64,000 nt of DNA from Acholeplasmataceae bacterium (GCA_963676765.1 OY781159.1:848021-912020); one strand, 5' to 3'; positions 26,531 through 48,441 are shown, counted from the stretch's first letter. Program-made: numbers and translations. Notes: generated from the sequence alone by a model not told the origin.

Positions 26531-29116
26531 ATGAAGAAGTTTACTTGGAAACTTGCTATCACGGTCATTGTTGCATACCTACTTTTGACTTCAGTTGTAT
26601 TATTATCATATACACTGATTTCAAACGGGTTTATCTTAGGACAAGCCGAACAGGAATTAACAACAATGGGCGAAGGGATTTCAGCCTCCTTTTCGCGCCA
26701 AGTCATCTATGACTATAATCGCTATGTCGATGAATTAGAGACATTAGATGACCCATTAACAGAGTTTGTACCTGCAAACTTTTCTTTGCTTGACCAAAAT
26801 ATACTTGGTATTGGGCAAATAGTAGACCGTGATCATGTCCATATTGGCACAGAAGTTTACGCTTATGATGCTAGTTTCTATTTAAATGATTTTGAACAAA
26901 ACGTCGCCATCTATCGTTTTAGTGACGCTTTTTCTACATGGACAGAAAACACGAGCCTCATGGTATTCAACTATAATGGGTTTATTGCTTATTTTGAAGC
27001 GTCAAGTTATCTCCAATCTTTCTTTGTAGGTAATGGTTTAGTTGAAAACTATTATGTGATTGGATCAGACTCTAGATTATATTATGATAGTTCAAATGCC
27101 TATAGTTATCCAAGATTTACGACATTCTTTAGAGAAGCTGGTTATTCAGAAGATTATATTTATGATATGACAAGTATGTTAACTAATTTGGAATCTGGTG
27201 TCATTCAATCAAAATTATTTGATGATTCACAATTGATTTCGTTTACACCGATCACAATTAGTTTAAATCAAATGACGAAACCACTTTATTTTGCTACGAT
27301 GTATAATCGTGCAGATGTTGTCACGACTATTTCGACATTAAGTAATATTTTGTGGGCTGTGTTCGCGGTTATTTTTATTATTTTCTCAGTAACCATTGTT
27401 ATCATTTATCGTGTTTTGGCAGCACGTATTGAGGATATTGATAATGCAAGATTAGCATTATATTTCTCAAAACCATATATTATTAAGATTAATAAACGTG
27501 GGCGCATTAAAGGGTATAATCGCACGTTTAGAAACTTCTTAGGTGATTTCGATATTTACGATGATGTTAGAGATTTCAAAGTAAAAGGTGTCTTAAATAA
27601 AGAAAGTATTTTAGAAATGGCAAAACGTCAGATTGCTATGACGTTCTTATTTGAAATCGAAAATGATGAAAAATATATTTTATTTATTCCAACAAGAACA
27701 ACTGGTGGTATCTTATTAATTGGTAGTGATACGACTCACATTGAGGGACGTTTTGATCAATATCGTAAACTTGCTTTAATGAATAGTGTGACTAACTTAC
27801 CTAACCAAAACCAGTTAATGCAGGATTTAGAAGAATTATTAGAAGATCCAGAGCGATCAAAGTTAAATAATTCATTAATCACTTTTGACATCGTGAATTA
27901 TCCAAAAATTAAATTAATTTTGGGACAACGGTCATCTAATCGATTTTTAAAGCTTATATCAGAAATGGTTAATCGGTCATTAGATGGTTATCCATCGGTT
28001 TTATACAATATTGAAGCAGACCAGTTTGTCGTTTTACTTGAAGGCATAGAAGCATATAAATGGGTTGAACGTTGGTTAGAAAAATTGACAGCTGTTTTCG
28101 ATAAGCCTGTCACAATTGAAAGAAACTTCTTAACTGTTGATTTCAAGTTTGGTATTTTTAATATTGAGTATGATAGATACGAGATTTTAAACAACTATGT
28201 TTGTTACGACAATATGATGCTTGCACTAAAACATGCGAAAGAGTCATCAAGACATAAGAAGTTTACATATGATGTTTCTTTATCAATTATTGCATCTAGA
28301 GAACATAAGATGGAACTTGATTTAGCAAATGCTATTAAAAAGAATGAATTTAAAATGGTATTACAAGCACAATTAAATAACAATACAAATAAAATTGTTG
28401 GTTTTGAGGCACTCATTCGTTGGACAAATCCAAGTTATGCAAATGAATCACCACTTAAATTTATTAAAATGGCAGAACAAAATGGTATGATTATTGATAT
28501 TGGACGCATTGCACTTCATGAAACATTTCTGATTGCGAAAGAAATGGAACCATATCATATTACAATTTCAATTAATATTTCGCCAGTTCAAATATTACAA
28601 GCTGGTTTTGTTAATGATTTAATTGATATCTTTCAACAATATGATTTACAAAAAGGATCAATCGCCTTAGAAATCACTGAAACATTCTTGATTGATTCAT
28701 TTGAACTTGTCATCAATAAACTAAATTTATTGAAGAAACATGGTTTCCATATTCACTTGGATGATTTTGGTACTGGCTACTCTTCATTACAATATTTAAG
28801 AGATCTTCCTGTTAATGCCTTAAAAATAGATAAGGCGTTCATAGATGAAGTAGAATCAGATGCTCATGCTAGAGCAATTGTGAATATGATATCTGATCTA
28901 GCAAAAAATATTAATTTGGAAGTTATTTCTGAAGGTGTTGAATCACCAAGACAAAATTTTATTATTAAAAAAGCTGGTTGTCATATCGTTCAAGGATATC
29001 TTGTTTCTAAACCTGTTGATAAACAAGTTGCAATCGAACTCGTCAGGGCTTATAATATAGACCATACGGCAGATGTTAAATCGCTGTTGCCAAAGACGAA
29101 GGAGGGACGCAGATGA
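26531..29116 (+). CDS. Membrane sensor GGDEF(degenerate)-EAL protein; probable active c-di-GMP phosphodiesterase
   Basis: Two TM segments flanking an extracellular domain; GGDEF replaced by EADQF; EAL motifs EALIRW, EITE, DDFGTGYSS, KID, EGVE, QG intact. Confidence 0.88.
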   Translation: MKKFTWKLAITVIVAYLLLTSVVLLSYTLISNGFILGQAEQELTTMGEGISASFSRQVIYDYNRYVDELETLDDPLTEFVPANFSLLDQNILGIGQIVDRDHVHIGTEVYAYDASFYLNDFEQNVAIYRFSDAFSTWTENTSLMVFNYNGFIAYFEASSYLQSFFVGNGLVENYYVIGSDSRLYYDSSNAYSYPRFTTFFREAGYSEDYIYDMTSMLTNLESGVIQSKLFDDSQLISFTPITISLNQMTKPLYFATMYNRADVVTTISTLSNILWAVFAVIFIIFSVTIVIIYRVLAARIEDIDNARLALYFSKPYIIKINKRGRIKGYNRTFRNFLGDFDIYDDVRDFKVKGVLNKESILEMAKRQIAMTFLFEIENDEKYILFIPTRTTGGILLIGSDTTHIEGRFDQYRKLALMNSVTNLPNQNQLMQDLEELLEDPERSKLNNSLITFDIVNYPKIKLILGQRSSNRFLKLISEMVNRSLDGYPSVLYNIEADQFVVLLEGIEAYKWVERWLEKLTAVFDKPVTIERNFLTVDFKFGIFNIEYDRYEILNNYVCYDNMMLALKHAKESSRHKKFTYDVSLSIIASREHKMELDLANAIKKNEFKMVLQAQLNNNTNKIVGFEALIRWTNPSYANESPLKFIKMAEQNGMIIDIGRIALHETFLIAKEMEPYHITISINISPVQILQAGFVNDLIDIFQQYDLQKGSIALEITETFLIDSFELVINKLNLLKKHGFHIHLDDFGTGYSSLQYLRDLPVNALKIDKAFIDEVESDAHARAIVNMISDLAKNINLEVISEGVESPRQNFIIKKAGCHIVQGYLVSKPVDKQVAIELVRAYNIDHTADVKSLLPKTKEGRR

Positions 29117-30543
29117 TACCATATGTTTTGGAAATTAGTCCAGCTATTCAAATATTAATTTCTGTTGGAGTTGTTGCTATTTTAGGTGTGTTGATTTATT
29201 TTCTGGCTGTCTCATTCTTCAAAGAAAGAAGACGTTTGATTGATGAAAAGTCTTTAACAATTGAAGGCATCTTAACAAAAACAGAAATGCATTCTTTAAT
29301 TGCTAGTTATATAACAAGAGCTTCTAGAGATATGCAATTCTCACTAATATATATTGACCTAGATAAGTTTACAGATTATGAAAATGCTTTTGGTGCGATT
29401 GAATCAGAAAGAATTATTGAACGTATTGTCAGAAATATTGAATCTGTTATATCAAGAAACATCAAAATTGCACGTATGCAAAAAGATGAATTGATCTTAA
29501 CACTTCCTTATGAATATGATCGTACAGAAACGATGGAAATCGCAAGTAAGGTTAAACAGGCAATTCATAAGCAAATTAGGTTGTTCGGAGATACAACGAT
29601 TAACGCTACTGCATCAATTGCAGTTGCCTTTTATCCTGCACATGGTTCACAAGTCAAAGAATTGCTTAATTCATTGCAAATAGCTACTTACATCATAAAG
29701 AAGAATGGCGGAAATATGGTTCGCATCTACTCGGAAGAAATGAGCAGTGAAGAAGGCGAACACGTAGAGTATTATTATCAAATTAAACATGCGATTCAAC
29801 ATAAAGAGTTTCAATTGTTTTATCATCCAATAATCGATATTGAAAACAAAACGATATATGGTGCAGAAGCTTTAATTAGATGGAATCACCCAGAGCACGG
29901 TTTATTATCACCATTTAAGTTTTTAGGTATTATGGAACAATCTGGAGATATTCATTGGATTGGTTTATGGGGATTAGAAACTATAATCAAGACATATCAG
30001 GAAATTTCACAAATGTTTCCTTCCGTTGAATTCAGAATTACAATGAATTTATCACCAAAACAATTGATGAGTGAGACAATTTTCCAAGATTTCCAGAAGA
30101 TTTTAAAGAAGTATCGGATGAATGCAAAACATATCGTCTTAGAAATCGTTGAATTTACATTGTTTGATCGTCAAGATGTCATTCGTAAAAACTTAAGTCT
30201 ACTAAAACAATTAGGGTTCATGATAGCAATCGATGGATTTGGACTTGATTTCAAAACATTAGAAAAAGTTGCACAACTTAATGTTGATATTATTAAACTT
30301 GATTCAGGTTTCTTATCAGAAGAAGAGGATTTCATCAGAAACAAATTCGCTAACTTAATTGTTGATTTTGCTAAAAAACATAATTGTGATGTCGTATGTG
30401 AATTGATTGAAACAAAAGATTTAATGATTGCTGCTAGAAATTACGGTATTCATCTATTGCAAGGTTATTATTTTAGCCAACCAATCTCGGCAGAAGCATT
30501 GCGCGGTTATATTGGTGTTTCTTCATGGGATCAAAAATTATAA
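29113..30543 (+). CDS. Membrane-anchored GGDEF-EAL protein, both domains degenerate
   Basis: N-terminal TM; GGDEF to QKDEL; DDFGTGYSS to DGFGLDFKT; EGVE to ELIE. Confidence 0.85.
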   Translation: MIPYVLEISPAIQILISVGVVAILGVLIYFLAVSFFKERRRLIDEKSLTIEGILTKTEMHSLIASYITRASRDMQFSLIYIDLDKFTDYENAFGAIESERIIERIVRNIESVISRNIKIARMQKDELILTLPYEYDRTETMEIASKVKQAIHKQIRLFGDTTINATASIAVAFYPAHGSQVKELLNSLQIATYIIKKNGGNMVRIYSEEMSSEEGEHVEYYYQIKHAIQHKEFQLFYHPIIDIENKTIYGAEALIRWNHPEHGLLSPFKFLGIMEQSGDIHWIGLWGLETIIKTYQEISQMFPSVEFRITMNLSPKQLMSETIFQDFQKILKKYRMNAKHIVLEIVEFTLFDRQDVIRKNLSLLKQLGFMIAIDGFGLDFKTLEKVAQLNVDIIKLDSGFLSEEEDFIRNKFANLIVDFAKKHNCDVVCELIETKDLMIAARNYGIHLLQGYYFSQPISAEALRGYIGVSSWDQKL

Positions 30544-30689: not shown

Positions 30690-30718
30690 TTGACAAAATT
30701 TGAAAAGAAGTATAAAAT
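30690..30718 (+). promoter_or_regulatory. Sigma-A promoter of the fibre locus
   Basis: TTGACA-17-TAAAAT immediately before riboswitch 1. Confidence 0.75.
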
Positions 30719-30981: not shown

Positions 30982-31085
30982 ACATGTGAAAAGCAAACCC
31001 GGAGAAATCCGGTGACGCAAAGCTATAGGGCCTAAAATAGGTAGCCAGTTGCCATCAAGCGTATTTGATGACGGCTGGCTTTATT
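30982..31085 (+). ncRNA. GEMM-I riboswitch 3 (A20 variant) with terminator
   Basis: AGCAAAC-CCGGA-GAAA-TCCGG-TGACGCAAAGCTATAGGGCCT...AGGTAGCCAGTTGC; terminator AGCCAGTTGCCATCAAG...TTTGATGACGGCTGGCT-TTATT. Confidence 0.88.
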
Positions 31086-31103
31086 GTTATAAGGAGAGAA
31101 TCC

Positions 31104-31826
31104 ATGAAAAGACTTTCAACCGTTACTGCAGCTAAAAAATTAACAAAAAGAAATCGCATATTTACAATCGGAATTTTAATTAGTGGTATTTTATCAGCTG
31201 TTCTTGGTGTGGTTACATTTTATGGTCAACAAGCCGGAAACTTCGTCATGAATGTCGATTATGAAGCTTACAACAGAGGAATTGTGATTGCTGATAATAG
31301 AACAATGGCTGATGCTGGTCCACAATTGATTAGTGGTTCCGTAGAAGATGCTAAAGATGTCACTTACCGTTGGTTAGACATTCAAAGTGCAGTTGAAACA
31401 GATGGAAATTTTTACGATCCTGATCTCACGTATATGGCGTACACATTCTATTTGCAAAATGCTGGTACAGAAGTAACTGATGTCATATACAGTATGAGAA
31501 TTACAGATGTTTATAAAAATTTAGATGAAGCAATAAGAGTTATTTTAATTGATGATGGCATTGAAACCATTTATCAAAAACAAGATGAAGCTGATGAATT
31601 TGGTGTTCTTCCAACTTATCCAGTTTCGATGCCAGATGCTGAAATGTTTCTAGATGATGATACAGTATTTAGAAACGTTGTTGAAAGTTTTGGACCAAAT
31701 GAAATTAGAAAGTTCACAGTAATTGTTTGGCTAGAAGGGGAGGACCCTGATACAAACGATGATATATTAGGTGGCTTAATTAAATTTAGAATGACATTTT
31801 CAATTGATGGAGATATCATTCAATGA
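31104..31826 (+). CDS. Exported pilin/TasA-like protein A (hypothetical)
   Basis: Basic N-terminus plus hydrophobic segment, acidic beta-rich body, C-terminal VWLEGEDPD; ATG after AAGGAG. Confidence 0.55.
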   Translation: MKRLSTVTAAKKLTKRNRIFTIGILISGILSAVLGVVTFYGQQAGNFVMNVDYEAYNRGIVIADNRTMADAGPQLISGSVEDAKDVTYRWLDIQSAVETDGNFYDPDLTYMAYTFYLQNAGTEVTDVIYSMRITDVYKNLDEAIRVILIDDGIETIYQKQDEADEFGVLPTYPVSMPDAEMFLDDDTVFRNVVESFGPNEIRKFTVIVWLEGEDPDTNDDILGGLIKFRMTFSIDGDIIQ

Positions 31827-32797
31827 GAAAAGTAAAATATTCGATTATCTTACTGCTCATCATGGCAATCTTATTAGGAACTGTGACTTATGCTTGGATC
31901 AGCTTATCGTTTATTAATAATATTGAAGGTATGCGTTTAACAGCAACCACTGGTGATGAATTGCAAATATCATTGGATGCTGAGCATTATAGTAGTGAAA
32001 TTTCAAATGAACAGTTAGAAGAAATCTTTGAAGATATTCGATTAACTGATGTTACAAGTATTGATGGTATTAACTTTCATACAGGCGGTTTAAGAGAAGT
32101 TGGTATTGCTGTTCCTAATCAAGATTACTTATCATTTGATCTTTATTTCCAAACAGTAGAACCGGTACATACAGTTTATTTGGCAAACAATGTATCAAAC
32201 GAAGTAAATTATGATACAGCTTCAACTGGCACATATGTTGTGTCACAAGGTGTTGAATGGACGACAAATATTGATTTTCAAAATGGTCCATCAATTGACG
32301 ATATCATTCGCGCTGGGACAAGTGACACGTATTATGGAAAACATGCAATTCGCATGAGTTTCCAAGAACTAAAAGATGAAGAAAATGTATTAGATGTTAG
32401 AGAGCAAAGTGAATTAAACACACTCATCTTCGATCCTTCAGAGGATCCTAGTAGAGGATATGGGCTCAGATATGGTGCGTATAGTTACTTCATACAAAGA
32501 ACTAGATATTATATTAGAACACCATTAGAGGAACCTAATACAATATATCACTTATCAGATGTTGATCCTACAAATCCTTATGTAACTTATGATGAAGAAT
32601 CGCTATTACTCACACTACAAGAAACAAACTTCCAAGATGGCGAAGGAAAGACATACTATCGTGGACAACTTAAAGTGAACATATGGGTTGAAGGTTGGGA
32701 TGTAGATGCGTTTGATGCCATTGATAAAGACTTAATTAGAGCGCAACTACAGTTTAAATTATTACAGTATTTAGAAGAATCACCAGTGTTGAATTAG
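31823..32797 (+). CDS. SipW-class signal peptide protein B
   Basis: Signal ends LGTVTYAW; C-terminal IWVEGWD. Confidence 0.65.
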   Translation: MRKVKYSIILLLIMAILLGTVTYAWISLSFINNIEGMRLTATTGDELQISLDAEHYSSEISNEQLEEIFEDIRLTDVTSIDGINFHTGGLREVGIAVPNQDYLSFDLYFQTVEPVHTVYLANNVSNEVNYDTASTGTYVVSQGVEWTTNIDFQNGPSIDDIIRAGTSDTYYGKHAIRMSFQELKDEENVLDVREQSELNTLIFDPSEDPSRGYGLRYGAYSYFIQRTRYYIRTPLEEPNTIYHLSDVDPTNPYVTYDEESLLLTLQETNFQDGEGKTYYRGQLKVNIWVEGWDVDAFDAIDKDLIRAQLQFKLLQYLEESPVLN

Positions 32798-32854: not shown

Positions 32855-33760
32855 ATGTCAAAAATCACAAGAAAACTCGTATTATCAATTTTAACGGTTG
32901 TCTTAACAGTGGCAGCACTTGGAACGACAACATTTGCGTGGTTCACACTTACAAACACTGCAACAGTTCAATCATTTGATGCAGAAATCGTTGCCGATAC
33001 CGGTATCGAAATTGCTTTGGATAACACAGGAAATCCATTGCTATATGATTGGAAAACAACAATTACGACACAAGACGTCTATGATTATATGACGGCTGTG
33101 TATGGGGAAGATTCATTTAGATTTAATAATGTTACTACGACAAACGGTACATCATTTGCTGATCTAGAAGGTACAGTTACAACAGCTGGTTATTTAGAAT
33201 TACCAATTCATTTCCGTTCACCAGATGCTACTGAAATCTTCATGGATGCATTCACATTGACTTCAACACCATTCTCATGGACATCATCAAATGAAACATT
33301 TGTTAACGAACATGGTGATACAATTTCTGCTGGCGACTCATTTAACGTTAATGCTGCGGATGCATTCCGTATGTCAGTTACAGGTACAATTTCATCAGCT
33401 TCAGTAACAACAGCTTATGAAAATCCAACAAGTGGTACAAACTACAATTTACCACAAGATTCAAATACAACACCGCTTGATTTAATAGCTAGTGATGGAT
33501 CAGTTAGTTTCTATGAAGCAGTTACTGCTACGGAACCTAATGGTGTAACATCAGTTAGTGTTGTAAATACAATTACTGTTATTGATGGTGATGCAAATAT
33601 TCTTAAAGTTGCGGATTTAGCTGGTGGACAAAGTGGTACTGCTGGTGCAGAATACTTTGGTTCAATTACAATTAGAATTTGGTTTGAAGGTTGGGATCCT
33701 AATGCTTATAATGCTTTATTAGGTAGAATCGTATCATCAACACTTCACTTTACGGCTTAA
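32855..33760 (+). CDS. SipW-class signal peptide protein C, candidate major fibre subunit
   Basis: Signal ends LGTTTFAWF; Thr/Ser/Asp-rich; C-terminal IWFEGWD; followed by a stable RNA structure. Confidence 0.7.
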   Translation: MSKITRKLVLSILTVVLTVAALGTTTFAWFTLTNTATVQSFDAEIVADTGIEIALDNTGNPLLYDWKTTITTQDVYDYMTAVYGEDSFRFNNVTTTNGTSFADLEGTVTTAGYLELPIHFRSPDATEIFMDAFTLTSTPFSWTSSNETFVNEHGDTISAGDSFNVNAADAFRMSVTGTISSASVTTAYENPTSGTNYNLPQDSNTTPLDLIASDGSVSFYEAVTATEPNGVTSVSVVNTITVIDGDANILKVADLAGGQSGTAGAEYFGSITIRIWFEGWDPNAYNALLGRIVSSTLHFTA

Positions 33761-33781
33761 TATAATATATTAATTATGATT

Positions 33782-33843
33782 CTAGTCTGGTAAGTGTATC
33801 TGTTTATCAGATATGCTTACCAATCCTTATTGGATTAGACTAG
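33782..33843 (+). other. Intergenic three-way-junction RNA structure without U-tract
   Basis: CTAGTCT/AGACTAG encloses a 14-bp hairpin (33789-33821) and a 5-bp hairpin (33822-33836). Confidence 0.6.
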
Positions 33844-33868
33844 TTACGACTTAATAAAGGAGTTACGT

Positions 33869-34573
33869 ATGAAAGAAAACAATTGGAATGCTAAACGCAT
33901 TTTAAAATTAATTGCTAACGTTATATTTTATGCTGTTATTGTATTTCTCATGATTTTTTCAATAGCAAATATTAGAGTACAACGTGAAGATAACTTAGCT
34001 AATGTTTTCGGTGTAGGTATGCTTTCTGTACAATCTGACTCAATGAAAGGCACGTTTGAAACCGGAGATCTATTATTCGTTAGCATGTTAGGTGAAGATG
34101 ATTTTGCTAATTTGGAAATTGGTGATGTTGTCACATACTACGATACATCTTTAGAAGCTTTTAATACGCACAGAATTGTTGCGATTGACCGAGTGGAAAG
34201 AATGTTAACAACACAAGCTGATTATAACTATGAAAGTCCAGGAGATCCAACATTTGCGGATAAGTCTGTTAGCTTTGATAGTGTAATTGCAACTTATAAT
34301 GGTTCTATGATTGCTGGTTTAGGTAATTCACTTGACTACTTACAAACACCAGTCGGATTTGCTTTATTCATTATTTTGCCAGTACTTTTAGTGCTTATTT
34401 TTGAAGGTGTCTTATTAGCTAGACATGTCATGGCATTAAACCGTGAAAAACTAGAAGTAAAATATGCAGAAGAACGTGAATTGGCAGCACAAAGCATTGA
34501 ATCAGAACGTGAACGTATGCGTGCTGAAATTCTTGCTGAAATGAAGAAAGAAAAAGCTATACATGCAAATTAA
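33869..34573 (+). CDS. sipW: Signal peptidase I, SipW/archaeal (S26B) type
   Basis: SVQSDSM (Ser), GDLL, THRIV (His rather than Lys), second TM and charged tail. Confidence 0.85.
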   Translation: MKENNWNAKRILKLIANVIFYAVIVFLMIFSIANIRVQREDNLANVFGVGMLSVQSDSMKGTFETGDLLFVSMLGEDDFANLEIGDVVTYYDTSLEAFNTHRIVAIDRVERMLTTQADYNYESPGDPTFADKSVSFDSVIATYNGSMIAGLGNSLDYLQTPVGFALFIILPVLLVLIFEGVLLARHVMALNREKLEVKYAEERELAAQSIESERERMRAEILAEMKKEKAIHAN

Positions 34574-34592: not shown

Positions 34593-36131
34593 ATGGTAGA
34601 GTTCGCTCGTTACTATATTGACCTGTTACGAAACTTTTTCATTAATGTCGGTGAATTCTTTAGTGCTGTATTTCAAGCATTCGCCGATTTCTTTGTTCGT
34701 AATGTGGGTGAATATTTTAATAGTTTTATTACTGCAACAGCACAATTTGGGCTACTTGATTGGGTCATGGCATTCGTCGTCATTGTCATCAATTTGGTCT
34801 TTTTCGTGTTTTTGATATTAAAACTCTATCAGTGGATTTCTAAATACGCGCGCTTCGTCGGGCGCGAGATAGAAAAAGACGAATTACTTGAAGAAATTGC
34901 GTTCTTAAATCAGAAAACAGTCGAACTTGTGGATGAACGTAATAAGATCTTAGCTTTAAAAGTTTCTAACTTAGGATTAAGTCCTGATGAAGAGTTAAAA
35001 GCTGAAGAAAAGATTTTGGAAGAAGAAATTAAGGAGAAAGAAGATTCTCGCTTCATCAAACTTATCGCAGTAGATGAAGAGTATAAGAACCGTGTTACAC
35101 AAATTCATATGCAAGAAGAAGACATGATTAATTTGAACGAACTTGTTACAAGGTTCATTAATTTTGCAGCAAACCGTTTAGGTTTGTTTTATAACAGACA
35201 GATCATCTCAGCATTCTTTGCTGGTATGGCTTCCTCTAAAACGATGATTTTAGAAGGGATATCTGGTACTGGTAAAACATCACTGCCTTATGCAATGGGT
35301 AAATTCTTCAACAATGACTCCCATATTATTGCCGTGCAGCCTTCATGGCGAGATCGTGCAGAAATGATGGGTTATTTAAACGAATTTACGAAACGCTTTA
35401 ATGAAACGGAGTTCCTAGAAGCGATTTATGAAACAACATATCATAACGATATAAATATCATCGTGTTAGATGAAATGAACTTGGCACGTGTTGAGTATTA
35501 TTTTGCAGAATTCTTATCACTCTTGGAAATGCCTGATAAAGATAAATGGTTAGTGGATGTTGTCCCTGATGAACTACCTTCTGATCCAGCACATCTTCAT
35601 CGTGGGAAATTATTGTTGCCGCAAAACGTCTGGTTTGTCGGTACAGCCAATAAAGATGATTCAACCTTTACCATTACCGATAAAGTATATGACCGTGCAA
35701 CTTCTATCGTTATTAATACAAAGGCAGATTACATTGATGCTCCTGAAACAAAAAGTATTACGATGAGTAATGACTACTTACAAGAATTATTTAGAGCTGC
35801 ATCAGATGAACATCAATTATCATTAAAGGCATTAAAAAATCTTGAACGCTTAGATAAATTCATTACTGAAAACTTTAAAGTCACATTTGGTAACCGTATC
35901 ATGAAACAAATTCGTGCATTCGTACCTGTATTTGTCGCATGTGGTGGTAGTGAAAATGAAGCGTTAGATTATATGGTAGCAAGAAAAATATTCAGAAAGT
36001 TTGAAGGATTGAACTTACCGTTCTTACAAAAAGAAATAAATGACTTATCAGCATTATTAGAACGATTATTTGGGAAGAACTCATTTGCTGAATGTCAAGA
36101 TTTCTTAACATCGATTAAGAAAACATTTTAA
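34593..36131 (+). CDS. Membrane-anchored McrB-like AAA+ NTPase
   Basis: Hydrophobic segment near aa 55-80; Walker A GISGTGKT, Walker B LDEMNLARVEYYF, GTANKDDST (NxxD), KVYDRA. Confidence 0.8.
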   Translation: MVEFARYYIDLLRNFFINVGEFFSAVFQAFADFFVRNVGEYFNSFITATAQFGLLDWVMAFVVIVINLVFFVFLILKLYQWISKYARFVGREIEKDELLEEIAFLNQKTVELVDERNKILALKVSNLGLSPDEELKAEEKILEEEIKEKEDSRFIKLIAVDEEYKNRVTQIHMQEEDMINLNELVTRFINFAANRLGLFYNRQIISAFFAGMASSKTMILEGISGTGKTSLPYAMGKFFNNDSHIIAVQPSWRDRAEMMGYLNEFTKRFNETEFLEAIYETTYHNDINIIVLDEMNLARVEYYFAEFLSLLEMPDKDKWLVDVVPDELPSDPAHLHRGKLLLPQNVWFVGTANKDDSTFTITDKVYDRATSIVINTKADYIDAPETKSITMSNDYLQELFRAASDEHQLSLKALKNLERLDKFITENFKVTFGNRIMKQIRAFVPVFVACGGSENEALDYMVARKIFRKFEGLNLPFLQKEINDLSALLERLFGKNSFAECQDFLTSIKKTF

Positions 36132-36145
36132 CCATTAAGGAGTAT

Positions 36146-38008
36146 GTGATGAAACATTTAAAAGAATTAAAAGAATTTCATCAAGCCATCACAAATGCTT
36201 ATTACGGCATTGAAATGGAACAATCATTTCCAAATCATTTCTATGACGCTCTTCTTTCTGGTGAAAACGAAATGTATCAAAAATCAATTACTGAAGTGAA
36301 ATCATTTCATGTTGATTGGATACCAACATTAGAATCATACTTACCATCGATTAATAAAATTATTATGGATCCGAAGTCTGGATTGCGTTATGAACAACCG
36401 GTTGTCGCTATCGAAAAAGCAAAAAAAGTGAATGCACAATCGATTCGTCATCTATCTATGCACTCTCATCTGGTTAAAGAAATCAGAGGTGATATGGTTA
36501 TTCCTAAAAAGATTATGACGACACAAGCAGAAATAGATTATGGTATTTATGAAAACCGATTTATGAAAACACTTATTCAGCGCTTGTTTGATTTTGTATT
36601 TCGCAGATACAATCTCATTAAAGCAAACATTGAATCGTTTAATAAAAGGCATTTTGATCTCAAAAGTAAATTTCAAATGCAAGATACGAATATTGATTTA
36701 GATATTCATGTTGCATTTACAGAACAGGCTGATAATGAAGCAGTCATCAAAAAAAACAATGAGATGCTACATCGGATTGAAGGACTGATGAAGCAAATCA
36801 ATGGCTTTATGTCGACAGTGTTTTGGGAAGAGATTAAAAATGTTAAACCAGTACAACCTCCAATTATGCAAACATCTATTCTCTTAAAGAATATTGACTA
36901 TAAGAACTGCTATACACTATGGTTATACCTAGATCGCTATGGCAACTTAGATTTTGATAATGACGTGAAAGAGAAGAATTTAACATTCGATCAATATTAT
37001 ACGAAAAATGTTTACCAGATTGCACTACAAACAGTCTCAATGATTTATGGTAATCAACTTGCTTTAGAAGATCATTATCAATATTTAAATGAAAAGGAAT
37101 ATCGTAGAAGAAGTCCTAAAATTATTAACAAGACATTAAATGAATTGTTAACACAAGATCAAGTTGAACAAATGGAAGACTTCACCTTAAATGAATATTT
37201 CTTAGAGCAAAGTAAAAAACAGTTTCAACAATTACTAGAAGATAAGCAAGAAGAATCATCAAGTTATGATGTTGCATTAAGAAGAGCACTTCGCGACACC
37301 ATACAAATTACAAACGCACTATTTGAATCGTATTTTGATTTAAATGATAAACCTGAAGGCGAAGACTTCATGTTTAGATCGCTTGTTAAAGAATCAACAT
37401 TTGATCAACTACAAACTGCCAGGCAAAGAGCACGTATTATGAAGATTGTTAGGGAAACAAAAGAAGTCGATTATAATAATATGATGCGTTTAGAAAAAAG
37501 AATTCTAAAAGAAATTGATTACTTAAACAAACAATATCTTGAAGAAGAGAAGGATAAAATTGAAAAAGAAGCTAAGCAAAAAGGTTTAGCAGAGAAGCTT
37601 AAACTTGAACGTCGTAATGCAGAAAAAGATCAAGCAAGAATTACACGTTATCTAAATTACGTTTCTAATCAACATAAAAAATTAGAGGCACAACATCGTA
37701 TAACAACTGAAAAAATTAGAAAAACTAGAGTTAAAGTTAAGGTCTCTGAAAAACAAATTATTGCAGCTGAAAAACGTAAGGCTAAGGCAGCGTATCATGA
37801 AGCATTAAAACGCATCCAAGAGCAGTATAAAACAGATAAAACAAAACTCCAAACACAACTTAAAAAACAACAAGAAAAGGATAAAAAGCGTTTAGAAACA
37901 CAATTGATTAATATTGAAAAAGCTTCTCGAAAACGTATTGATACAGAAAAGAAAAAGATAGAAAAACGTTATGCAAAAAAACTTAAAAAAGCGAGTAAAA
38001 ATGCGTAA
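36146..38008 (+). CDS. DUF2357-like protein with long C-terminal coiled coil; no visible nuclease
   Basis: DYGIYENRF motif; last ~170 aa Lys/Glu-rich helical; no PD-(D/E)xK or DAKY motif seen. Confidence 0.65.
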   Translation: MMKHLKELKEFHQAITNAYYGIEMEQSFPNHFYDALLSGENEMYQKSITEVKSFHVDWIPTLESYLPSINKIIMDPKSGLRYEQPVVAIEKAKKVNAQSIRHLSMHSHLVKEIRGDMVIPKKIMTTQAEIDYGIYENRFMKTLIQRLFDFVFRRYNLIKANIESFNKRHFDLKSKFQMQDTNIDLDIHVAFTEQADNEAVIKKNNEMLHRIEGLMKQINGFMSTVFWEEIKNVKPVQPPIMQTSILLKNIDYKNCYTLWLYLDRYGNLDFDNDVKEKNLTFDQYYTKNVYQIALQTVSMIYGNQLALEDHYQYLNEKEYRRRSPKIINKTLNELLTQDQVEQMEDFTLNEYFLEQSKKQFQQLLEDKQEESSSYDVALRRALRDTIQITNALFESYFDLNDKPEGEDFMFRSLVKESTFDQLQTARQRARIMKIVRETKEVDYNNMMRLEKRILKEIDYLNKQYLEEEKDKIEKEAKQKGLAEKLKLERRNAEKDQARITRYLNYVSNQHKKLEAQHRITTEKIRKTRVKVKVSEKQIIAAEKRKAKAAYHEALKRIQEQYKTDKTKLQTQLKKQQEKDKKRLETQLINIEKASRKRIDTEKKKIEKRYAKKLKKASKNA

Positions 38009-38028: not shown

Positions 38029-38793
38029 ATGCATAAGTTAAAGATTAAAGAACATCGTAAATTAACGATCGTTTCACTTCTATATGTATTGTTTGCAGTA
38101 TTTATGTTAACGGTCGTAACTTATGCATGGTTTACGTTAACTGACCAGAATAGTGCTCATTTAATTGAAGCTGTTTCCGGTGTTGAAGCCGAGTATGAAT
38201 ATTATGTGTATAATGATGCATCTCACACAGGATCATTAGAACCAACACTTATTGATAATGTATCCACAACAGGCGAAAATTTAGCATATGAATATATTCC
38301 TAATCCAACCGTTGCTCATTTAATTGATGGTTATATTGCACCTGGAGAGATATTCTCGTTCGCGATTAAGATTATAAATGTTGGTACGGATATTGGTTAT
38401 TTAAATTTAAGTTTAACAAATGTATTCTCTGAAGGATTTGAACGAGAAGAAAATCGTATTCAAAATGCGTTGTATTATGAAATTACAAATATTGTTCAAA
38501 CAGATGGAGTAACGGAATCAAGTGACATTAAAGATGATGCACCTACTGTCTATTGGCAAGATTATTTAGATGATGTCGATCATAGGAGTTATCCAATGGT
38601 TAAAAATGTGCCATTAGGAGCTACACCTACAAATAGACAAACAATTATATTTTTTGATATCGTCTTTGATCCAACTGTATATGGGTTTGATATAGAAGGA
38701 GAACCTTATACTAACTCAAATATTTTCATGGGTCAAAAAGTTACCATTAATCAAATATATATGACTATTTCGCCTAATCCGGAGGTTATATGA
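38029..38793 (+). CDS. SipW-class signal peptide protein D
   Basis: Signal ends LTVVTYAWF; acidic beta-rich body. Confidence 0.65.
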   Translation: MHKLKIKEHRKLTIVSLLYVLFAVFMLTVVTYAWFTLTDQNSAHLIEAVSGVEAEYEYYVYNDASHTGSLEPTLIDNVSTTGENLAYEYIPNPTVAHLIDGYIAPGEIFSFAIKIINVGTDIGYLNLSLTNVFSEGFEREENRIQNALYYEITNIVQTDGVTESSDIKDDAPTVYWQDYLDDVDHRSYPMVKNVPLGATPTNRQTIIFFDIVFDPTVYGFDIEGEPYTNSNIFMGQKVTINQIYMTISPNPEVI

Positions 38794-39491
38794 AAAATGT
38801 TGCATCTAAAATCCTAACTGGATTTGCTATATTAATCTTCATATTAGCCATTGGGATTATGATTGCTGGAACAATCGCGATGCGTCGTAATGAACCAGTC
38901 TTCATCTTTGGTTATGCGTTAGCTGTCGTCCCAACTGAATCCATGGTGGGTGATCAAGATGATTCTCTTGATATTAATGATCTAGTTATCATTAAGCGAA
39001 TTGATATCAGTGAAGTGAATGTGGATCAACATCCAGTCATTGTTTATCAAGGGGTTGGTAATAACGGGTCCGATATTTTAATTATTCACCGTGTTGTTGA
39101 AGAGACTGAAGAGGGGTTAGTGACACAAGGCGATAATACGGAAACAAATCCGATATCTGACCAAGCAGCAGGAATACAGGATTATATAACAGCAGATAAT
39201 TTTCAAGGCATATATGCCTTTAAAATAACATTTTTAAAACCCATAGCAAATATAATGACAGATTCAAGAACAACTATATTTGCGATTATCGTTGTAATAT
39301 TAGTCATGATATTATTAACAGAACTTATTCATATTGTTAAAACAATGCATGAAAAAAAGAAAGATGACATGGCAAAACAGCATGAATCCTATATTGCATT
39401 AATGAAAGTGAAGCATCGTAGGGAAATAAAAGATGAACTTAAAAAAGAGTATATGGCAAACTTAGAGCAATCTAAGGACGCAAAGCTATAG
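38790..39491 (+). CDS. sipW: Second SipW-type signal peptidase I
   Basis: VVPTESM (Ser), IIHRVV (His), TQGDN, second TM and charged tail. Confidence 0.82.
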   Translation: MKNVASKILTGFAILIFILAIGIMIAGTIAMRRNEPVFIFGYALAVVPTESMVGDQDDSLDINDLVIIKRIDISEVNVDQHPVIVYQGVGNNGSDILIIHRVVEETEEGLVTQGDNTETNPISDQAAGIQDYITADNFQGIYAFKITFLKPIANIMTDSRTTIFAIIVVILVMILLTELIHIVKTMHEKKKDDMAKQHESYIALMKVKHRREIKDELKKEYMANLEQSKDAKL

Positions 39492-39542
39492 GGCCTTAAA
39501 GAGGTAGCCAGTTGCACCAATGATTTGGGCAGCTGGCTTTTA
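39445..39542 (+). ncRNA. c-di-GMP-I riboswitch 4 overlapping the 3' end of the second sipW CDS, with terminator
   Basis: GGCAAAC-TTAGA-GCAA-TCTAAG-GACGCAAAGCTATAGGGCCT...AGGTAGCCAGTTGC; terminator AGCCAGTTGC...GCAGCTGGCT-TTT. Confidence 0.88.
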
Positions 39543-39564
39543 TGCTTTAAAAGAAGAGGATAAT

Positions 39565-40224
39565 ATGAACAGAAAAGCAGTAGTTATCATGTTAATCTTA
39601 GCCATCTTTACACTTGTTAGTAGTGTAAGTTATGCATGGTTTACATACGTTGAGCAAAAGAGTTTAGCGTCTTTTGAAGCAGGTGTTTTATCTGTTTACA
39701 CAACAATGAATGATGAACCATTTTCAACAACTTACAATATCACAGATATTGCATATGTTGATTTTGAAAATGATGTCATCAATGATGTATCACAGACATT
39801 TGATTTAATGGCTTCTTCAAATGTCATTGACATTCAGTTAGACCCTCAATCACCACTTGCAGTGCATGAGATCACAATTAGTGAACCTACAAACCAAGAA
39901 GGATTACTCATATTGTTGATCAATGAAGGCATAAACTTAGAATCTGGAGCTCCAATCACATCTAATTACCACGATCTGATTGAGACGATTACAACCGGTT
40001 CAAGTACTGCTGAAGAGATGAGACTCGCGATTGATTTATATAATCAATCTGTACTAGATGATATTCATCAAACAGTTATGAGTACATCAGACACATTAAG
40101 CTTACAAGTGGTGGTATGGGGTGATTATAATGCATTAAGTGATCCAACTAATTATCTTGATTTAACTTTCACCTTAACAATTACAATTGATACAATTAAT
40201 GCAAAAGGAGCTGTTTCTCCATGA
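39565..40224 (+). CDS. SipW-class signal peptide protein E
   Basis: Signal ends SSVSYAWF; ATG at 39565 after GAGGA. Confidence 0.65.
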   Translation: MNRKAVVIMLILAIFTLVSSVSYAWFTYVEQKSLASFEAGVLSVYTTMNDEPFSTTYNITDIAYVDFENDVINDVSQTFDLMASSNVIDIQLDPQSPLAVHEITISEPTNQEGLLILLINEGINLESGAPITSNYHDLIETITTGSSTAEEMRLAIDLYNQSVLDDIHQTVMSTSDTLSLQVVVWGDYNALSDPTNYLDLTFTLTITIDTINAKGAVSP

Positions 40225-40901
40225 GATTAATTGATCGTATATTACTTATTGGTATGAGTATTTTACTTGTCTTAATGATTAGTGTGATTGTGACTTATGC
40301 TTACTTCCAAGTTTCAGAAACGCATGGCATTACCATTGATACTGGAGAATTTGAAGTTGAGTTAGTTGTTAAATTTAATGGAGTTACTGTTGATGTTGAT
40401 AGTAACTATTATGATAAAAATCGTGGGAAGATTATTGCTAATGCTTCTGATCCATTAAGCGATAATTATATTGAAAACATGACAATTGATCTAGTAGTTA
40501 CACCAGAAGTAGCCGCACGTATGCGGTTCAAAATTCAACAAGAATGGGAATTGCGTCGTTATTATTTAGACCAAGATACAGAAAATCCAATTGATCCGGT
40601 ATTTGAATCAATTTATCATCCTCAAAAGACGATAGCATATTACCCATATTCACTCATGATGTGGGCACCTGACTTTCCATATAGTTATGAACAAGATGGC
40701 ACTGTATATTACATGGATATTATACCCAATAGTGGTGTAGTTACGATTCCGTTAATTCATGGCGGATCACCATATACAGTACGAACAAATAGTGTGTTAT
40801 TTGAAGAGTGTTATGTGTATTTTGATATTTATATCGATCTTGTACAGGCAAACAGATTTGCTGAAGTATGGGGAATCGATCCCAATTATTTTAATGAGTA
40901 A
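40221..40901 (+). CDS. SipW-class signal peptide protein F
   Basis: Signal ends VIVTYAYF. Confidence 0.62.
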   Translation: MRLIDRILLIGMSILLVLMISVIVTYAYFQVSETHGITIDTGEFEVELVVKFNGVTVDVDSNYYDKNRGKIIANASDPLSDNYIENMTIDLVVTPEVAARMRFKIQQEWELRRYYLDQDTENPIDPVFESIYHPQKTIAYYPYSLMMWAPDFPYSYEQDGTVYYMDIIPNSGVVTIPLIHGGSPYTVRTNSVLFEECYVYFDIYIDLVQANRFAEVWGIDPNYFNE

Positions 40902-40916
40902 ATAAGGAAGGTATAT

Positions 40917-43900
40917 ATGAAACGTGTGATATCCAAAGTAACAATTATTATCTTAATCGTTACAACAACGCTTTTTATAAGCTCTTTTTTATCACGTGAT
41001 TTTGTATATGCAGATGATTATCAAGCATCATCATCTTGGACTGGTGCAGATATTGGTGTAACTCCTTTAAATGGTATAACATTTGATAGTGATTATAGAC
41101 AGTTTTCTACGGTTATTGATGATTATACGTTAGTTGATACAAATAAGACTTATGTGCTTGAAACGGCATATGATTTATACATGTTTTCAGAACTCGCAAG
41201 AGGAACTCAAAGTACGTTATATCTAAGTCTAGATTATGTGCTTGGTACAGACATAGATTACTTTGATGCATTACAAGAAAACATTGCATATTTGTTTACA
41301 CCAATTGGCTTTAATACACCATTTACTGGTACATTTGATGGCCAAGGATATGAAATAACGAATCTCATTTTTAGATCCGTTAATTCAACTGAAGATTATG
41401 ATACATATATGCCCGGTTTAATTTATTATTCAATGTTTTCAAGAATATCTGAGACAGCTATTATTGAAAATCTTGGTTTAATTAATCCACTCATTGTGCA
41501 AGCGATTGAACAAGGAGCTATGACGCATGTATCTGTATTAGTTGGTGAAAATAGAGGACTAGTTCAAAATGTTTATTATCTTGATAATAGAGGGGATTCT
41601 GCTGGTATTAATGCAGAAGGTAATTTCTTTATATCAGGTCTAGTGTCAAGAAATATAGGAACCATAACGAATGCATTTGTGTCAACGCCACATGTTAAAA
41701 GTTTAGCGGTTATTGATAATTTAGCATCTGCAGTATTAGTCTATTCAAATACTGGCACAATCTCACAAACATATTATGATGAAGATGTTTATGGGGATGA
41801 AGGAACAACCAGTATTTCAAATGGTGATGGTCTTTCAACAAGTGAATTCCAAAATGCGAGTAATTTTAATAGCGATTGGTATTTTAGTGATTCTTATAGT
41901 GGTCTAACAACTGACCCAGAACTTATAAGTCAAACAATCATTGATAGTACATATCCAACACTGCAAGGTGTTGCAGTAAATCAAAGGGTTATTGAAATTA
42001 ATGACGCTGTTGATTTTGTTTATATGAATGAATTATTAAATGTATCTGGTCTATTTAGAGCAAGTGATTATATAATTACAAGTGATATCGATATGAACCA
42101 AGTCTCACGCAAGGCTTATAAAGCTGCTAGTGTGGGTTTTTCTGGTTCTCTATCTAGTACGCTGATTAGTGCAGGGTCAACGCTTTACACGCATACGCCA
42201 GCGCAAGGTGGAACATATCAGTATCATACAATTATTGGACTAAAAATAAGTGATACGACATTGATTGGGAATTATGCTAGTTATGCACTATTTAGTTCTT
42301 TGTTTGGTAAGGTTACGCATCTTAATTTTTTGGATTATACAATTATTCCTGAAGATATTGAAATGACTGCAAATAGAGATCGCATTTTAATTGGTGGTAT
42401 TGCAGCTGCAAGTGCAAATGGTGCATTAATCGATGATGTGCATATTGATTTAACTATTGATATTCCAGAAACAACCACAGAACTTGGACAAGTTTTAGTT
42501 GGTGGTATGGTAGCTGAAGGATCTATTCAATTAGCAAATTCAAGTAGTACTGGTTTCATTGATGAATTAAGTTTGAATTATAATGCAAGATCAGATGAAT
42601 CTGTTGTTGCGGGTATGATTGGACACGCTTTTAATGTCACACTGGATCATGTATTAAATAATATGACCGTTGAAGGTCTAGGTTATCAAGATATACCTTC
42701 TGGGACAACTTATTATGGGGGTATGATTGGTTTTGGTAGTGCCATGGCAATGCATTATGTTGTAAATGTAGCTGATATCAATACACATACAAATGGTGCC
42801 ATAAATACTTCATATATTGGTGGTATTGTTGGCTATCAAACTGATTTGCTAGATCAGACGACATATATTTATAACAGCGGTAATGTTGCAACGACAATTA
42901 ATAGAGCACAGGATTATCACATGGCTGGTTATGGCACAATTGAAGATTTAGAAGATAATTTGAATATGGTATCTCTAACGAATAGTGGTGCTATTACTGT
43001 GCATCTTTCAGATACTATAACAACTAGTGATTTAATCAACATGGATGGTTATGTTTCTGGTGTTTTAATTAGTTATGCAAGTGGTACAATTACAGGTCTA
43101 TTCCAAACGAGAAATCAAGTGATTGATTTATCGGGTTTATCACATTTTGCAGGAACACTACTCGCACTTGATCAGACTGATTTAACAGTTGCTCAAGCTT
43201 ATCAAGAAGGTAATTTAACATTTGAAACGACAACTGATTTGACAAAATCAACAATGCATATCGCTTTGAATGTATTTGGAACAAATCTAAGTCAAACTCA
43301 TTTACGTCAAGAGGGTAACGCTAACTTTCATTTAACTGAAGATTCCAATGCTACTGTAACAGCTGGATCATTTTATATATATGGTGTGATTGAAGAAGTC
43401 AGTCAAGATTTTTATGCAACTGATCTATTCAATGGTGGAGACATTACAATTGATGTGGACAATGGTGTAGATCTTTTATATGATTTGTATATTGGTGGTA
43501 TTGGTTTTCACAATAGAAATACGAATTTATATGAAGAACATAATATAGATCCTGAATCTATTGATATTGAAACTGTTTCAGGATCCCTAGATACTGCACT
43601 TAATAGTGGATCAATTACAGTTCGTGGTGATTTAGATGGGCATGTGAAAGTAGCCGGAATTTTAGTGATGAATGCATCGATTGTCACAAATGCGATTAAT
43701 TTAGGTAATGTCGATGTAAGAAGTGATGCTCAAACAACAAATGATGCAATCGAGGCTGCAGGAATTGTCTACCTAATGCTTGGTGAATATGCGCAAATTA
43801 GAGATGCTGCTAACAATGGTGACATCATTGCAGTATCAGCAACATCAATTGGTTATGCACATGCTGCAGGGATTGCAGTAAGAAATGAATTAAATGAAGA

Positions 43901-48409: not shown

Positions 48410-48441
48410 AAAAGGTTATTAGCAGATGCTAATAGCCTTTT
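48410..48441. terminator. Bidirectional intrinsic terminator
   Basis: AAAAGGTTATTAGCA-ga-TGCTAATAGCCTTTT between convergent genes. Confidence 0.85.

Follow-up and report, generated by a model that had tools for sequence, protein, structure and literature searches.

In this study we examine two adjacent genes of an Acholeplasmataceae bacterium (GCA_963676765.1), located in a stretch of 64,000 nucleotides (nt) of DNA (OY781159.1:848021-912020) that we refer to as the window. The first gene (34593..36131) encodes a protein of 512 amino acids (aa), here called B, which has the hallmarks of a membrane-anchored McrB-like nucleoside triphosphatase (NTPase): the expected sequence motifs, a predicted transmembrane (TM) segment, and matches in the PDB and PADLOC databases. 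The second gene (36146..38008) encodes C, a McrC-like partner recognized by its match to DUF2357, in which we detected no nuclease. The two genes are embedded in an operon that also encodes two signal peptidases of the SipW type and a set of secreted, subunit-like proteins. The class to which the pair very probably belongs is not new, since it has already been named CoCoPALM by Bell et al. (eLife 2024; PMC11090510). Coordinates are counted from the first letter of the window, and all features given below lie on the + strand. An earlier reading, made from the DNA sequence alone (hereafter the sequence-only reading), had placed a McrBC-like pair at 34593-38008, and the two open reading frames (ORFs) occupy exactly this interval.

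Features of protein B

McrBC is a textbook restriction enzyme driven by guanosine triphosphate (GTP), in which the N-terminal (DUF2357) module of McrC plugs the McrB hexamer and stimulates GTP hydrolysis. The AAA+ core of B covers about aa 195-470 and contains the McrB motifs quoted in the sequence-only reading, namely GISGTGKT (aa 222-229; Walker A, 35256-35279), DEMNLARVEYYF (aa 293-304) and GTANKDD (aa 350-356), with the Walker B DE pair at 35469-35474 and NKDD at 35649-35660. These three motifs, the Walker B sequence VLDEMN and an arginine within VYDRAT are invariant in 22 homologs that share 62-91% identity with B. McrB was the sole solved structure matched by B in the PDB, weakly (E 0.011 by sequence, 0.0033 by profile), in an alignment that pairs the Walker A and Walker B motifs, the signature asparagine and the downstream arginine. 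The match to Pfam AAA_5 fell below threshold (19.8 vs 22 bits). At the signature motif, GTANKDD (N353-K-D355-D356) aligns with GTANHDE in two proteins resembling CnuB. An alternative reading of NKDD is NxxD, with a gapless alignment to NTAD of E. coli, so the motif by itself does not discriminate.

The region preceding the core has the character that the sequence-only reading attributed to it. Residues 1-50 form aromatic-rich amphipathic helices in which E3, F4, R6, Y8, I9, G20, F22 and F23 are invariant, and they are followed by the single strongly hydrophobic segment of the protein, at about aa 55-80 (Kyte-Doolittle peak 3.24). In the AlphaFold2 model an unbroken helix runs from aa 54 to aa 123. 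No DNA-binding family was found by Pfam in aa 1-123, which consist of the amphipathic helices, the TM segment and the helix. Since the residues after the TM segment are basic (KYARFVGRE) and those before it acidic, the positive-inside rule places the NTPase in the cytoplasm and the conserved N-terminus outside, an N-out/C-in topology that we regard as a prediction. Comparison of the B N-terminus with E. coli FtsB by hhalign gave a probability of 1.5%, which is not significant, and there was no match to the DivIC/FtsB family of Pfam. Judged by these features, B is a single-pass membrane protein with a McrB-type NTPase whose catalytic motifs are all intact.

Features of protein C

The C gene can be read from a GTG start (620 aa) or from an ATG one codon further on (619 aa). 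Its product matches DUF2357 at aa 44-153 (3.7e-13; 49.7 bits vs the Pfam threshold of 23.3), and the YENRF motif noted in the sequence-only reading lies inside this match, at aa 135-139. An exhaustive search with aa 1-435 as query returned 1450 cluster representatives at E <= 1e-3. A family profile built on 150 representatives aligns over C aa 51-263 with the DUF2357 proteins of two plasmid loci resembling CoCoNuT systems, from Rhodoferax (99.1%) and Deinococcus (98.4%), and the likeness ends at aa 263, ahead of the C-terminal domains of these CnuC-like proteins. The DUF2357 module spans about aa 44-263 (36275-36934). Residues Y135, E136, N137 and P239 are invariant in the wide family. Comparison of the family profile with E. 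coli McrC by hhalign gave no similarity (probability 0.1%); we take E. coli McrC to belong to the Pfam family McrBC, which is different from DUF2357.

Beyond the module lies a family-specific region, aa 264-442 (36935-37471), which is conserved in the close family; in the wide family no position past about aa 260 reaches 90% conservation. Within it, D273-V-K275/E276 was considered as a remnant of a PD-(D/E)xK motif and rejected, because D273 and K275 vary among close homologs. The last 177 residues, aa 443-619 (37472-38005), are predicted as a single helix in the AlphaFold2 model and comprise 23% Lys, 12% Glu and 8% Arg, with one glycine, no proline and a net charge of +29. No TM segment was found in C. 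The hydrophobic periodicity of the tail peaks near 3.67-3.8 residues, and the 3.5-residue signal is not significant (p = 0.54), so we do not assert a classical coiled coil. The coiled coil proposed in the sequence-only reading thus holds as a long predicted helix and lacks the support of a heptad repeat; the tail could be a single helix or a non-heptad coil. Tails of the C family range from 0 to 934 aa, contain 40-60% Lys, Glu, Arg and Gln, have no TM segment, and are charged in nearly all of the 150 representatives. Among 130 relatives, 76% of the tails are net positive and 24% neutral or acidic.

The sequence-only reading also held that C carries this Lys/Glu-rich helix in place of a nuclease, and our searches agree. 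Pfam returned DUF2357 alone for the window C and 61 diverse relatives (28 of the 62 proteins), besides one Rho_N and one low-complexity match. Sequence and profile searches of the PDB gave nothing for the globular part, just coiled-coil noise, and Foldseek of the C model against the PDB gave nothing at E <= 1e-3, a weak control given a predicted local distance difference test (pLDDT) score of 68. None of the PADLOC models matched C, even at E up to 1. Pfam likewise recognized no DNA-binding domain in B or C, across the window proteins and the C relatives. On this sequence evidence, C appears to keep only the N-terminal DUF2357 module of McrC, with the nuclease replaced by the family-specific region and the long basic helix.

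Nor did Pfam, TIGRFAM-type profile and TM scans find a nuclease domain in any other protein of the operon. TM analysis shows that all operon proteins other than B and C carry signal anchors, so no cytoplasmic nuclease is encoded alongside the pair. Although neither a DNA-recognition domain nor a nuclease was found, the description of B and C as stripped of DNA functions goes too far: the tail of C, with its charge of +29, could bind nucleic acid or anionic lipid.

SipW peptidases and secreted proteins of the operon

Our ORF map shows that the operon is a run of about 17 kb of + strand genes separated by short gaps or overlaps. It begins with three subunit-like genes and a stem-loop, continues with sipW1, the B-C pair and a fourth subunit gene, and ends with sipW2, two more subunit genes and the gene of a giant protein. 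The position of the pair between sipW1 and a subunit gene is as the sequence-only reading had it, with gaps of 19 nt between sipW1 and B, 14 nt between B and C, and 20 nt between C and the next gene.

SipW1 (33869..34573) scores above the cutoff of TIGR02228, the family of signal peptidases of the endoplasmic reticulum (ER)/archaeal type (63.2 bits, cutoff 51.85), and has two TM segments and a charged cytoplasmic tail of about 45 aa. SipW2 (38790..39491) has the same layout of two TM segments and a tail, and its TIGR02228 score of 34.3 bits is below the cutoff. Both families retain the Ser-Met, His and Asp residues of ER/archaeal-type peptidases. Among 70 SipW1 sequences, conservation is at least 94% for Ser58-Met, His101 and Asp118, and at least 90% for K194, E211, R218 and E224 of the tail. 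Among 61 SipW2 sequences, Ser51-Met and His100 are 100% and Asp124 98% conserved, and only these catalytic residues reach 90% or more.

Six small secreted proteins surround the peptidases, and in five of them a hydrophobic N-terminal segment precedes (T/S)-(F/Y)-A and then (W/Y)-(F/I)-(T/S/Q), a junction resembling the one that SipW cleaves in TasA. The odd one is pil253 (31065..31826), a secreted or anchored subunit-like protein with one N-terminal TM segment (aa 30-55), an atypical cleavage region and no Pfam family. The others are pil324 (31823..32797; signal anchor, TYA/WIS motif), pil301 (32855..33760; signal anchor, TTFA/WFTLTN motif and a C-terminal RIWxEGWD motif), which is the probable major subunit, pil254 (38029..38793; TYA/WFTLTD), pil234 (39520..40224; SYA/WFTYVE) and pil226 (40221..40901; TYA/YFQVSE). 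Known families of SipW substrates are matched weakly and by the signal regions alone, pil301 by Peptidase_M73 (E 0.049) and pil226 by the BsaA family TIGR04090 (E 0.025). Searches of the PDB, Pfam and homologs detected no sequence similarity of the mature subunits to TasA, camelysin or BsaA. Among 5.8 billion proteins pil301 has 267 homologs. None of the 120 listed has a name beyond "hypothetical", and those with a named organism belong to Mollicutes. The sequence-only reading spoke of a pilin gene next to the pair. Homology does not establish this, as neither a solved structure nor a Pfam family matches the secreted neighbours, and what they share with proteins of the TasA/BsaA type is just the SipW-type signal region; in view of that region, "pilin" would still be a reasonable label for them.

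The gap between pil301 and sipW1 (33761-33868) contains an RNA stem-loop with a 15-bp stem (33788..33822) and folds at -33.4 kcal/mol (z = -5.2), with no clear U-tract after the stem. Unusual structure was also seen at the corresponding place in 45 of 51 related loci (median z -4.9). The element is probably an attenuator or an mRNA stabilizer, through which the major subunit would be expressed more strongly than the machinery genes. A hairpin after the gene of a major pilin is a common arrangement, and the conserved stem-loop supports the idea of a fibre with a major subunit.

The last gene (40917..48404) encodes a giant secreted protein of 2495 aa with an N-terminal signal anchor (TM segment aa 3-28). 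No Pfam family matched it; homologs of 1950-2430 aa occur in 16 related loci, and the protein is a probable tip, adhesin or other surface component. Its last ~130 residues contain three GD(R/V)xxYxxxxY...W repeats, which we take to be like small carbohydrate-binding modules, an idea that Pfam did not confirm. A terminator-like stem-loop with a 14-bp stem (48410..48441) closes the operon.

At the other end, the best match to a sigma-70-like promoter lies at 30690..30718 (11 of 12 consensus positions), a weak candidate that consists of a consensus match alone. Upstream of it are two genes for GGDEF-EAL membrane proteins: one of 861 aa (26531..29116; Pfam EAL 2.6e-61, GGDEF 6.8e-13), the upstream neighbour of the operon, and a second protein of 476 aa (29113..30543; EAL 2.1e-56, GGDEF 2.8e-17). 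By eye, the EAL motifs of this pair (26531-30543) look intact and the GGDEF motifs degenerate. The flanks of the operon contain metabolic and transport genes, among them thioredoxin-reductase-like, MatE transporter, FMN reductase, Ogt, oxidoreductase and hydrolase genes, and no restriction, transposase, integrase, defence or mobile genes were found in them within the window.

Conservation of the operon

Scanning one genome per species with the B alignment, we found at least 574 stretches encoding relatives, of which the best 80 were used. Together with three more distant contigs, these 80 species-level genomes yielded 83 related loci, whose ORFs were labelled with the operon proteins of the window; the labels reveal a conserved gene order. 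Hosts include Acholeplasma laidlawii, A. granularum, A. oculi, Paracholeplasma vituli, Peloplasma aerotolerans and an Anaeroplasmataceae metagenome-assembled genome, and the nearest homologs of B and C are all from Acholeplasmataceae or "Tenericutes". The hosts found thus appear to be mainly Acholeplasmatales, A. laidlawii among them. Acholeplasma-type bacteria are wall-less.

A sipW gene lies directly upstream of B in 76 of the 83 loci (median gap 31 nt), and C directly downstream of B in 63 of the 75 loci with enough downstream sequence (median gap 13 nt). On the three distant contigs, whose C relatives are only 22-25% identical, the order is sipW, B, C, sipW2 and EAL genes. The arrangement is not due to chance, as it recurs in the 80 species-level genomes and the three distant contigs. 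The three points that the sequence-only reading had named in advance as able to refute it all turned out in favour of that reading: no nuclease fold was found in C, B has a TM segment, and the pair lies next to sipW genes rather than in defence islands lacking them.

We distinguish two types of operon, one with C and sipW2 and one in which B is followed directly by subunit genes and the giant protein gene. C and sipW2 occur together in 53 cases and are both absent in 10; C occurs alone in 2 and sipW2 alone in none. C and sipW2 are therefore one module, gained and lost together, and sipW1-B is the other. The paralogous operon that lacks C and sipW2 (sipW1 and B, with the giant protein last) is represented by L023-L025, L029, L031-L033, L035, L037, L041, L046 and L051. 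It coexists with the C-containing operon in at least eight assemblies and lies directly upstream of it, in tandem, on four contigs; the pairs L023/L004, L037/L015 and L024/L078 each share one contig. In the window there is one merged operon.

No other operon protein is as conserved as B, whose median identity is 60-64% against 31-47% for the others and whose identity across the 83 loci ranges from 49 to 75%. In the 21 loci that have all core genes, median identity to the window is 60% for B, 40% for C, 41% for SipW1, 32% for SipW2 and 31-43% for the subunit-like proteins. Syntenic homologs of pil253 occur in 51 loci. The 861-aa GGDEF-EAL protein has a homolog in the same position in 28 related loci, and EAL genes are also adjacent to the operon, downstream of it, in the distant loci L082-L084.

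Outside these genomes, tblastn on plasmids gave just partial matches, 25-40% identical, to the AAA+ core of B in CoCoNuT-like loci. Two unannotated contigs from human faeces, labelled "Bacteriophage sp.", encode similar cores: MT835511.1 (36.5% over B aa 172-469) and MT837127.1 (30.5% over aa 205-375). A EukProt transcript assigned to the protist Anaeramoba ignava (a90141_120) encodes homologs of both B (88%) and C (80%). It looks like a polycistronic bacterial transcript, which suggests a close relative living with, or contaminating, that protist culture.

Comparison with known systems

Bell et al. introduced CoCoPALM in one paragraph and deferred it to a forthcoming paper, describing an FtsB-like TM segment and coiled coil fused to a McrB GTPase of the NxD branch, in which the signature is shortened to NxD and D or E usually comes next, with linked signal-peptidase genes and coiled coils on both partners (PMC11090510). 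Our literature search found no later paper that mentions it, and the supplementary text files of Bell et al. mention neither CoCoPALM nor FtsB nor SipW. A literature search also found nothing that links SipW with McrB, SipW with Acholeplasma, or A. laidlawii with TasA.

The window locus resembles this description in its NxD-type McrB-like GTPase with an N-terminal TM segment and helix, in its DUF2357 partner with a long helix, and in its adjacent signal-peptidase genes, sipW1 ending 19 nt before B and sipW2 being separated from C by one gene. Each partner has a long predicted helix, at B aa 83-123 and C aa 443-619, where CoCoPALM has its coiled coils. As for the FtsB fusion, B has the TM-plus-helix architecture; sequence homology to FtsB could not be reproduced, and the topology we predict is the reverse of that of FtsB, with the coiled coil in the cytoplasm. 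Given these defining features, the DUF2357 match above threshold, McrB as the sole structure match, the alignment with CnuC-like proteins and the shared motifs, we are highly confident, at the level of sequence, that the locus belongs to the CoCoPALM class, and we saw no feature that speaks against it. To the description by Bell et al. our data add a range of hosts with culturable species among them, two modules (sipW1-B and C-sipW2), an operon type without C, the GGDEF-EAL genes with their link to cyclic diguanylate (c-di-GMP), the subunit genes with a hairpin marking the probable major one, and the basic tail of C.

The nearest described relatives are the CoCoNuT systems (CnuB/CnuC), exemplified by the plasmids NZ_CP019242 of Rhodoferax antarcticus and NZ_CP044987 of Deinococcus sp. 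AJ005. The AAA+ core of B is 35-40% identical to its CoCoNuT counterparts, GISGTGKT and GTAN-x-D-(D/E) are shared, and the DUF2357 modules align at 98-99%. The N-terminal coiled coil of CnuB is soluble, and CnuB lacks the TM segment that B has. CoCoNuTs also carry nucleases and a large helicase-like AAA protein in a plasmid or defence setting, whereas the window locus has neither and is chromosomal and conserved. CoCoNuTs that lack the McrC nuclease always carry another one (PMC11090510); because we found none, the locus is not a CoCoNuT.

The two plasmid loci (L085, NZ_CP019242, 1088-10065; L086, NZ_CP044987, 715-10125) contain the closest non-Mollicute relatives of the B core. Each comprises four genes, for an AAA protein of ~1100 aa, a hypothetical protein of ~490 aa, an AAA ATPase of 790-800 aa and a DUF2357 protein, which is the CoCoNuT layout of Bell et al. 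(PMC11090510). Loci of this kind are probably what the PADLOC model PDC-M26A represents. In the window B alone matches PDC-M26, over part of PDC-M26A, and C does not, although the system is defined by both components.

The E. coli and Thermococcus McrBC complexes (PDB 6HZ4, 6UT6, 7VSR, 6UT3-7) share with the window pair the aligned AAA+ core motifs and a partner gene immediately downstream. They differ from it in the N-terminal DNA-binding domain of McrB, which B does not have, and in the PD-(D/E)xK domain, which C does not have. Because both domains were searched for and neither was found, the locus is not a canonical McrBC.

On the side of secretion, the closest parallels are the SipW fibre operons, TapA-SipW-TasA of B. 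subtilis and SipW-BsaA/B/C of C. perfringens (PMC11580942), in which an ER/archaeal-type peptidase likewise shares an operon with its secreted substrates. The substrates are alike in having a (T/S)-(F/Y)-A / (W/Y)-F-type junction after the hydrophobic signal, and in the weak matches of the signal region. Unlike these operons, the window has two tailed SipW paralogs, an embedded AAA+ pair, a wall-less host and mature subunits in which no similarity of sequence was detected. A preprint on C. perfringens proposes that proteins associated with the type IV pilus (T4P) help the SipW-dependent BsaA polymer past the peptidoglycan (PMC11580942), which provides a loose precedent for help from an NTPase in a SipW pathway.

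A parallel in concept exists with the ATPases of T4P and type II secretion systems (PilB/GspE, with the platform protein PilC), where a cytoplasmic hexameric NTPase, a membrane partner and a dedicated signal peptidase serve a fibre of membrane-anchored subunits. Also similar is the arrangement of a major subunit gene with a hairpin behind it and minor subunit genes nearby. There is, in contrast, no homology; the NTPase branch and the peptidase class are different, and the window encodes no platform protein. The cut sites differ as well, since SipW cleaves after the hydrophobic helix and the prepilin peptidase before it.

Discussion

Our analysis leads us to favour the view that B and C are a CoCoPALM-type derivative of McrBC that has passed from DNA restriction to service in a membrane machine, where it would act together with two SipW peptidases to build a multi-subunit secreted surface structure. 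The pair is tied to the SipW and subunit genes by their shared synteny, by the joint gain and loss of C and sipW2, and by the conserved residues of the SipW proteins. The strong conservation of B and its ordinary metabolic flanks indicate a core rather than an accessory gene. On the evidence of sequence and gene context, it seems likely that the job of the pair is the biogenesis of the secreted structure rather than defence. For the motor role that the sequence-only reading proposed, in export, assembly or retraction of a fibre, the support comes from gene context.

How such a machine might operate can be sketched by analogy with McrBC structures. B would form a membrane-tethered hexamer that hangs beneath the membrane on six TM and coiled-coil helices, with one C inserted through its DUF2357 module and stimulating GTP hydrolysis. 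The cytoplasmic tail of SipW1 would dock on B, and that of SipW2 on the C helix, so that movements driven by GTP hydrolysis could travel along the TM and coiled-coil helices and reach either the peptidases or the signal anchors by which the subunits are held. In this way SipW cleavage of the signal anchors would be coupled to ordered polymerization or anchoring of the subunits at the membrane. The resulting surface structure may end in, or carry, the giant protein, on a cell lacking a wall in which a fibre could be held, and turnover of c-di-GMP by the adjacent GGDEF-EAL proteins may set the timing. We consider this specific mechanism of force transmission a tentative proposal. Equally speculative is its fullest version, in which the B-C ring, acting through its TM helices and the tails of both SipW peptidases, is the power unit as well as the membrane anchor of a new fibre-assembly machine that couples cleavage to processive, base-fed polymerization of a new subunit family on the bare membrane of wall-less bacteria, under c-di-GMP control.

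Several observations weigh against our interpretation. Fibres of the SipW/TasA type described so far form outside the cell and are not known to require an NTPase. The contacts between B, C and the SipW proteins are predictions from gene context. Ten to twelve paralogous operons have B without C, indicating that C is not always needed in cis. The mature part of pil301 found no match in a profile search of the PDB, so that the word fibre stands for something we infer. B matches PDC-M26A, a model of a candidate defence system. The structural models are mediocre, with pLDDT values of 66-68 across B and C and below 50 in places of the AAA+ part of B, because the underlying alignments are shallow and made up of close relatives. 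When the B model was compared with the PDB by Foldseek, no match reached E <= 1e-3; MCM, Lon, McrB of T. gammatolerans and RavA were returned, none of them significant, McrB of T. gammatolerans being among the top three. Since McrB and McrC themselves are not significantly recovered from these models, the apparent absence of a nuclease fold in C rests mainly on sequence profiles.

The explanation that fares best among the alternatives is that B-C is a switch and not a motor, that is, a GTP-dependent checkpoint that gates SipW or signals the state of the fibre or of c-di-GMP across the membrane, without exerting force on the subunits. In near as well as distant loci the operon has linked GGDEF-EAL genes; McrC, according to the textbook view, occupies the central pore of McrBC, which makes threading of a substrate unlikely; assembly of the TasA type is not known to need an energy source; and operons with B alone exist. 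Pfam, however, detected no c-di-GMP-binding domain in B or C, and the very high conservation of the AAA+ core, the TM segment and the N-terminus would fit a motor equally well. A switch overlaps with the interpretation we favour and differs from it just in what hydrolysis does, and we judge it unlikely, though worth keeping in mind.

The sequence-only reading had offered defence as an alternative, in the form of a non-nucleolytic system tied to the fibre. More broadly, the pair could be an anti-phage system derived from type IV restriction, either non-nucleolytic or cryptically nucleolytic, that perhaps senses attack at a surface structure. The match of B to PDC-M26A (1e-42; B aa 152-317 against profile positions 270-435 of 724), the CoCoNuT-like plasmid loci that harbour the closest non-Mollicute relatives of the B core, and the homolog of this core on a contig labelled "Bacteriophage sp." would all suit such a role. 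The pattern of conservation disfavours it: the syntenic association with sipW and the subunit genes is constant over 80 species, and B is the slowest-evolving gene of the operon, the opposite of typical defence genes. Moreover, C matches no PADLOC model, the flanks are free of defence and mobile genes, and neither C nor the operon yielded the nuclease that CoCoNuTs with a nuclease-less McrC carry elsewhere (PMC11090510). Defence is for these reasons an improbable function of the pair.

We attach very little weight to a role in handling nucleic acid at the membrane, in which the basic helix of C would bind DNA or RNA and the complex would move it together with the surface structure, in uptake or export. 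The charge of the C tail, the net positive tails of most relatives, the Rho_N domain in one C relative and descent from a DNA translocase are compatible with this idea. A tail that is neutral or acidic in 24% of relatives and varies from 0 to 934 aa in length, the lack of a recognizable DNA-binding domain in B or C, and an operon without competence or conjugation genes speak against it, and binding to anionic membrane lipids would explain the charge just as well. Hardly more credible is a scaffold for cell shape or division, in which an FtsB-like TM segment and coiled coil, an AAA+ ring and a long helix would form a cytoskeletal element of the wall-less cell, with an indirect link to sipW; the FtsB homology reported for the N-terminal fusion (PMC11090510), the mainly wall-less hosts and the very strong conservation of B are countered by an FtsB similarity that neither hhalign nor Pfam reproduced, by a predicted topology of B opposite to that of FtsB, by the absence of division genes from the flanks in the window, and by distances to sipW1 and C typical of translational coupling, which argue for one complex with the peptidases.

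A branch of McrBC that has no DNA-recognition domain and no nuclease, is anchored in the membrane and is conserved as a core gene would represent a defence motor turned to a cellular job. If the speculative fibre-assembly machine powered by the B-C ring is real, it would constitute a further class of prokaryotic filament biogenesis and the first mechanical use of the McrBC motor on something other than nucleic acid. A. laidlawii can be cultured and its phages are known, and the occurrence of the operon in this species makes the function of CoCoPALM directly testable. Our findings also raise the question of how a wall-less bacterium builds and holds a surface fibre or adhesin, the answer to which could reveal a new, NTPase-dependent route for proteins processed by SipW.

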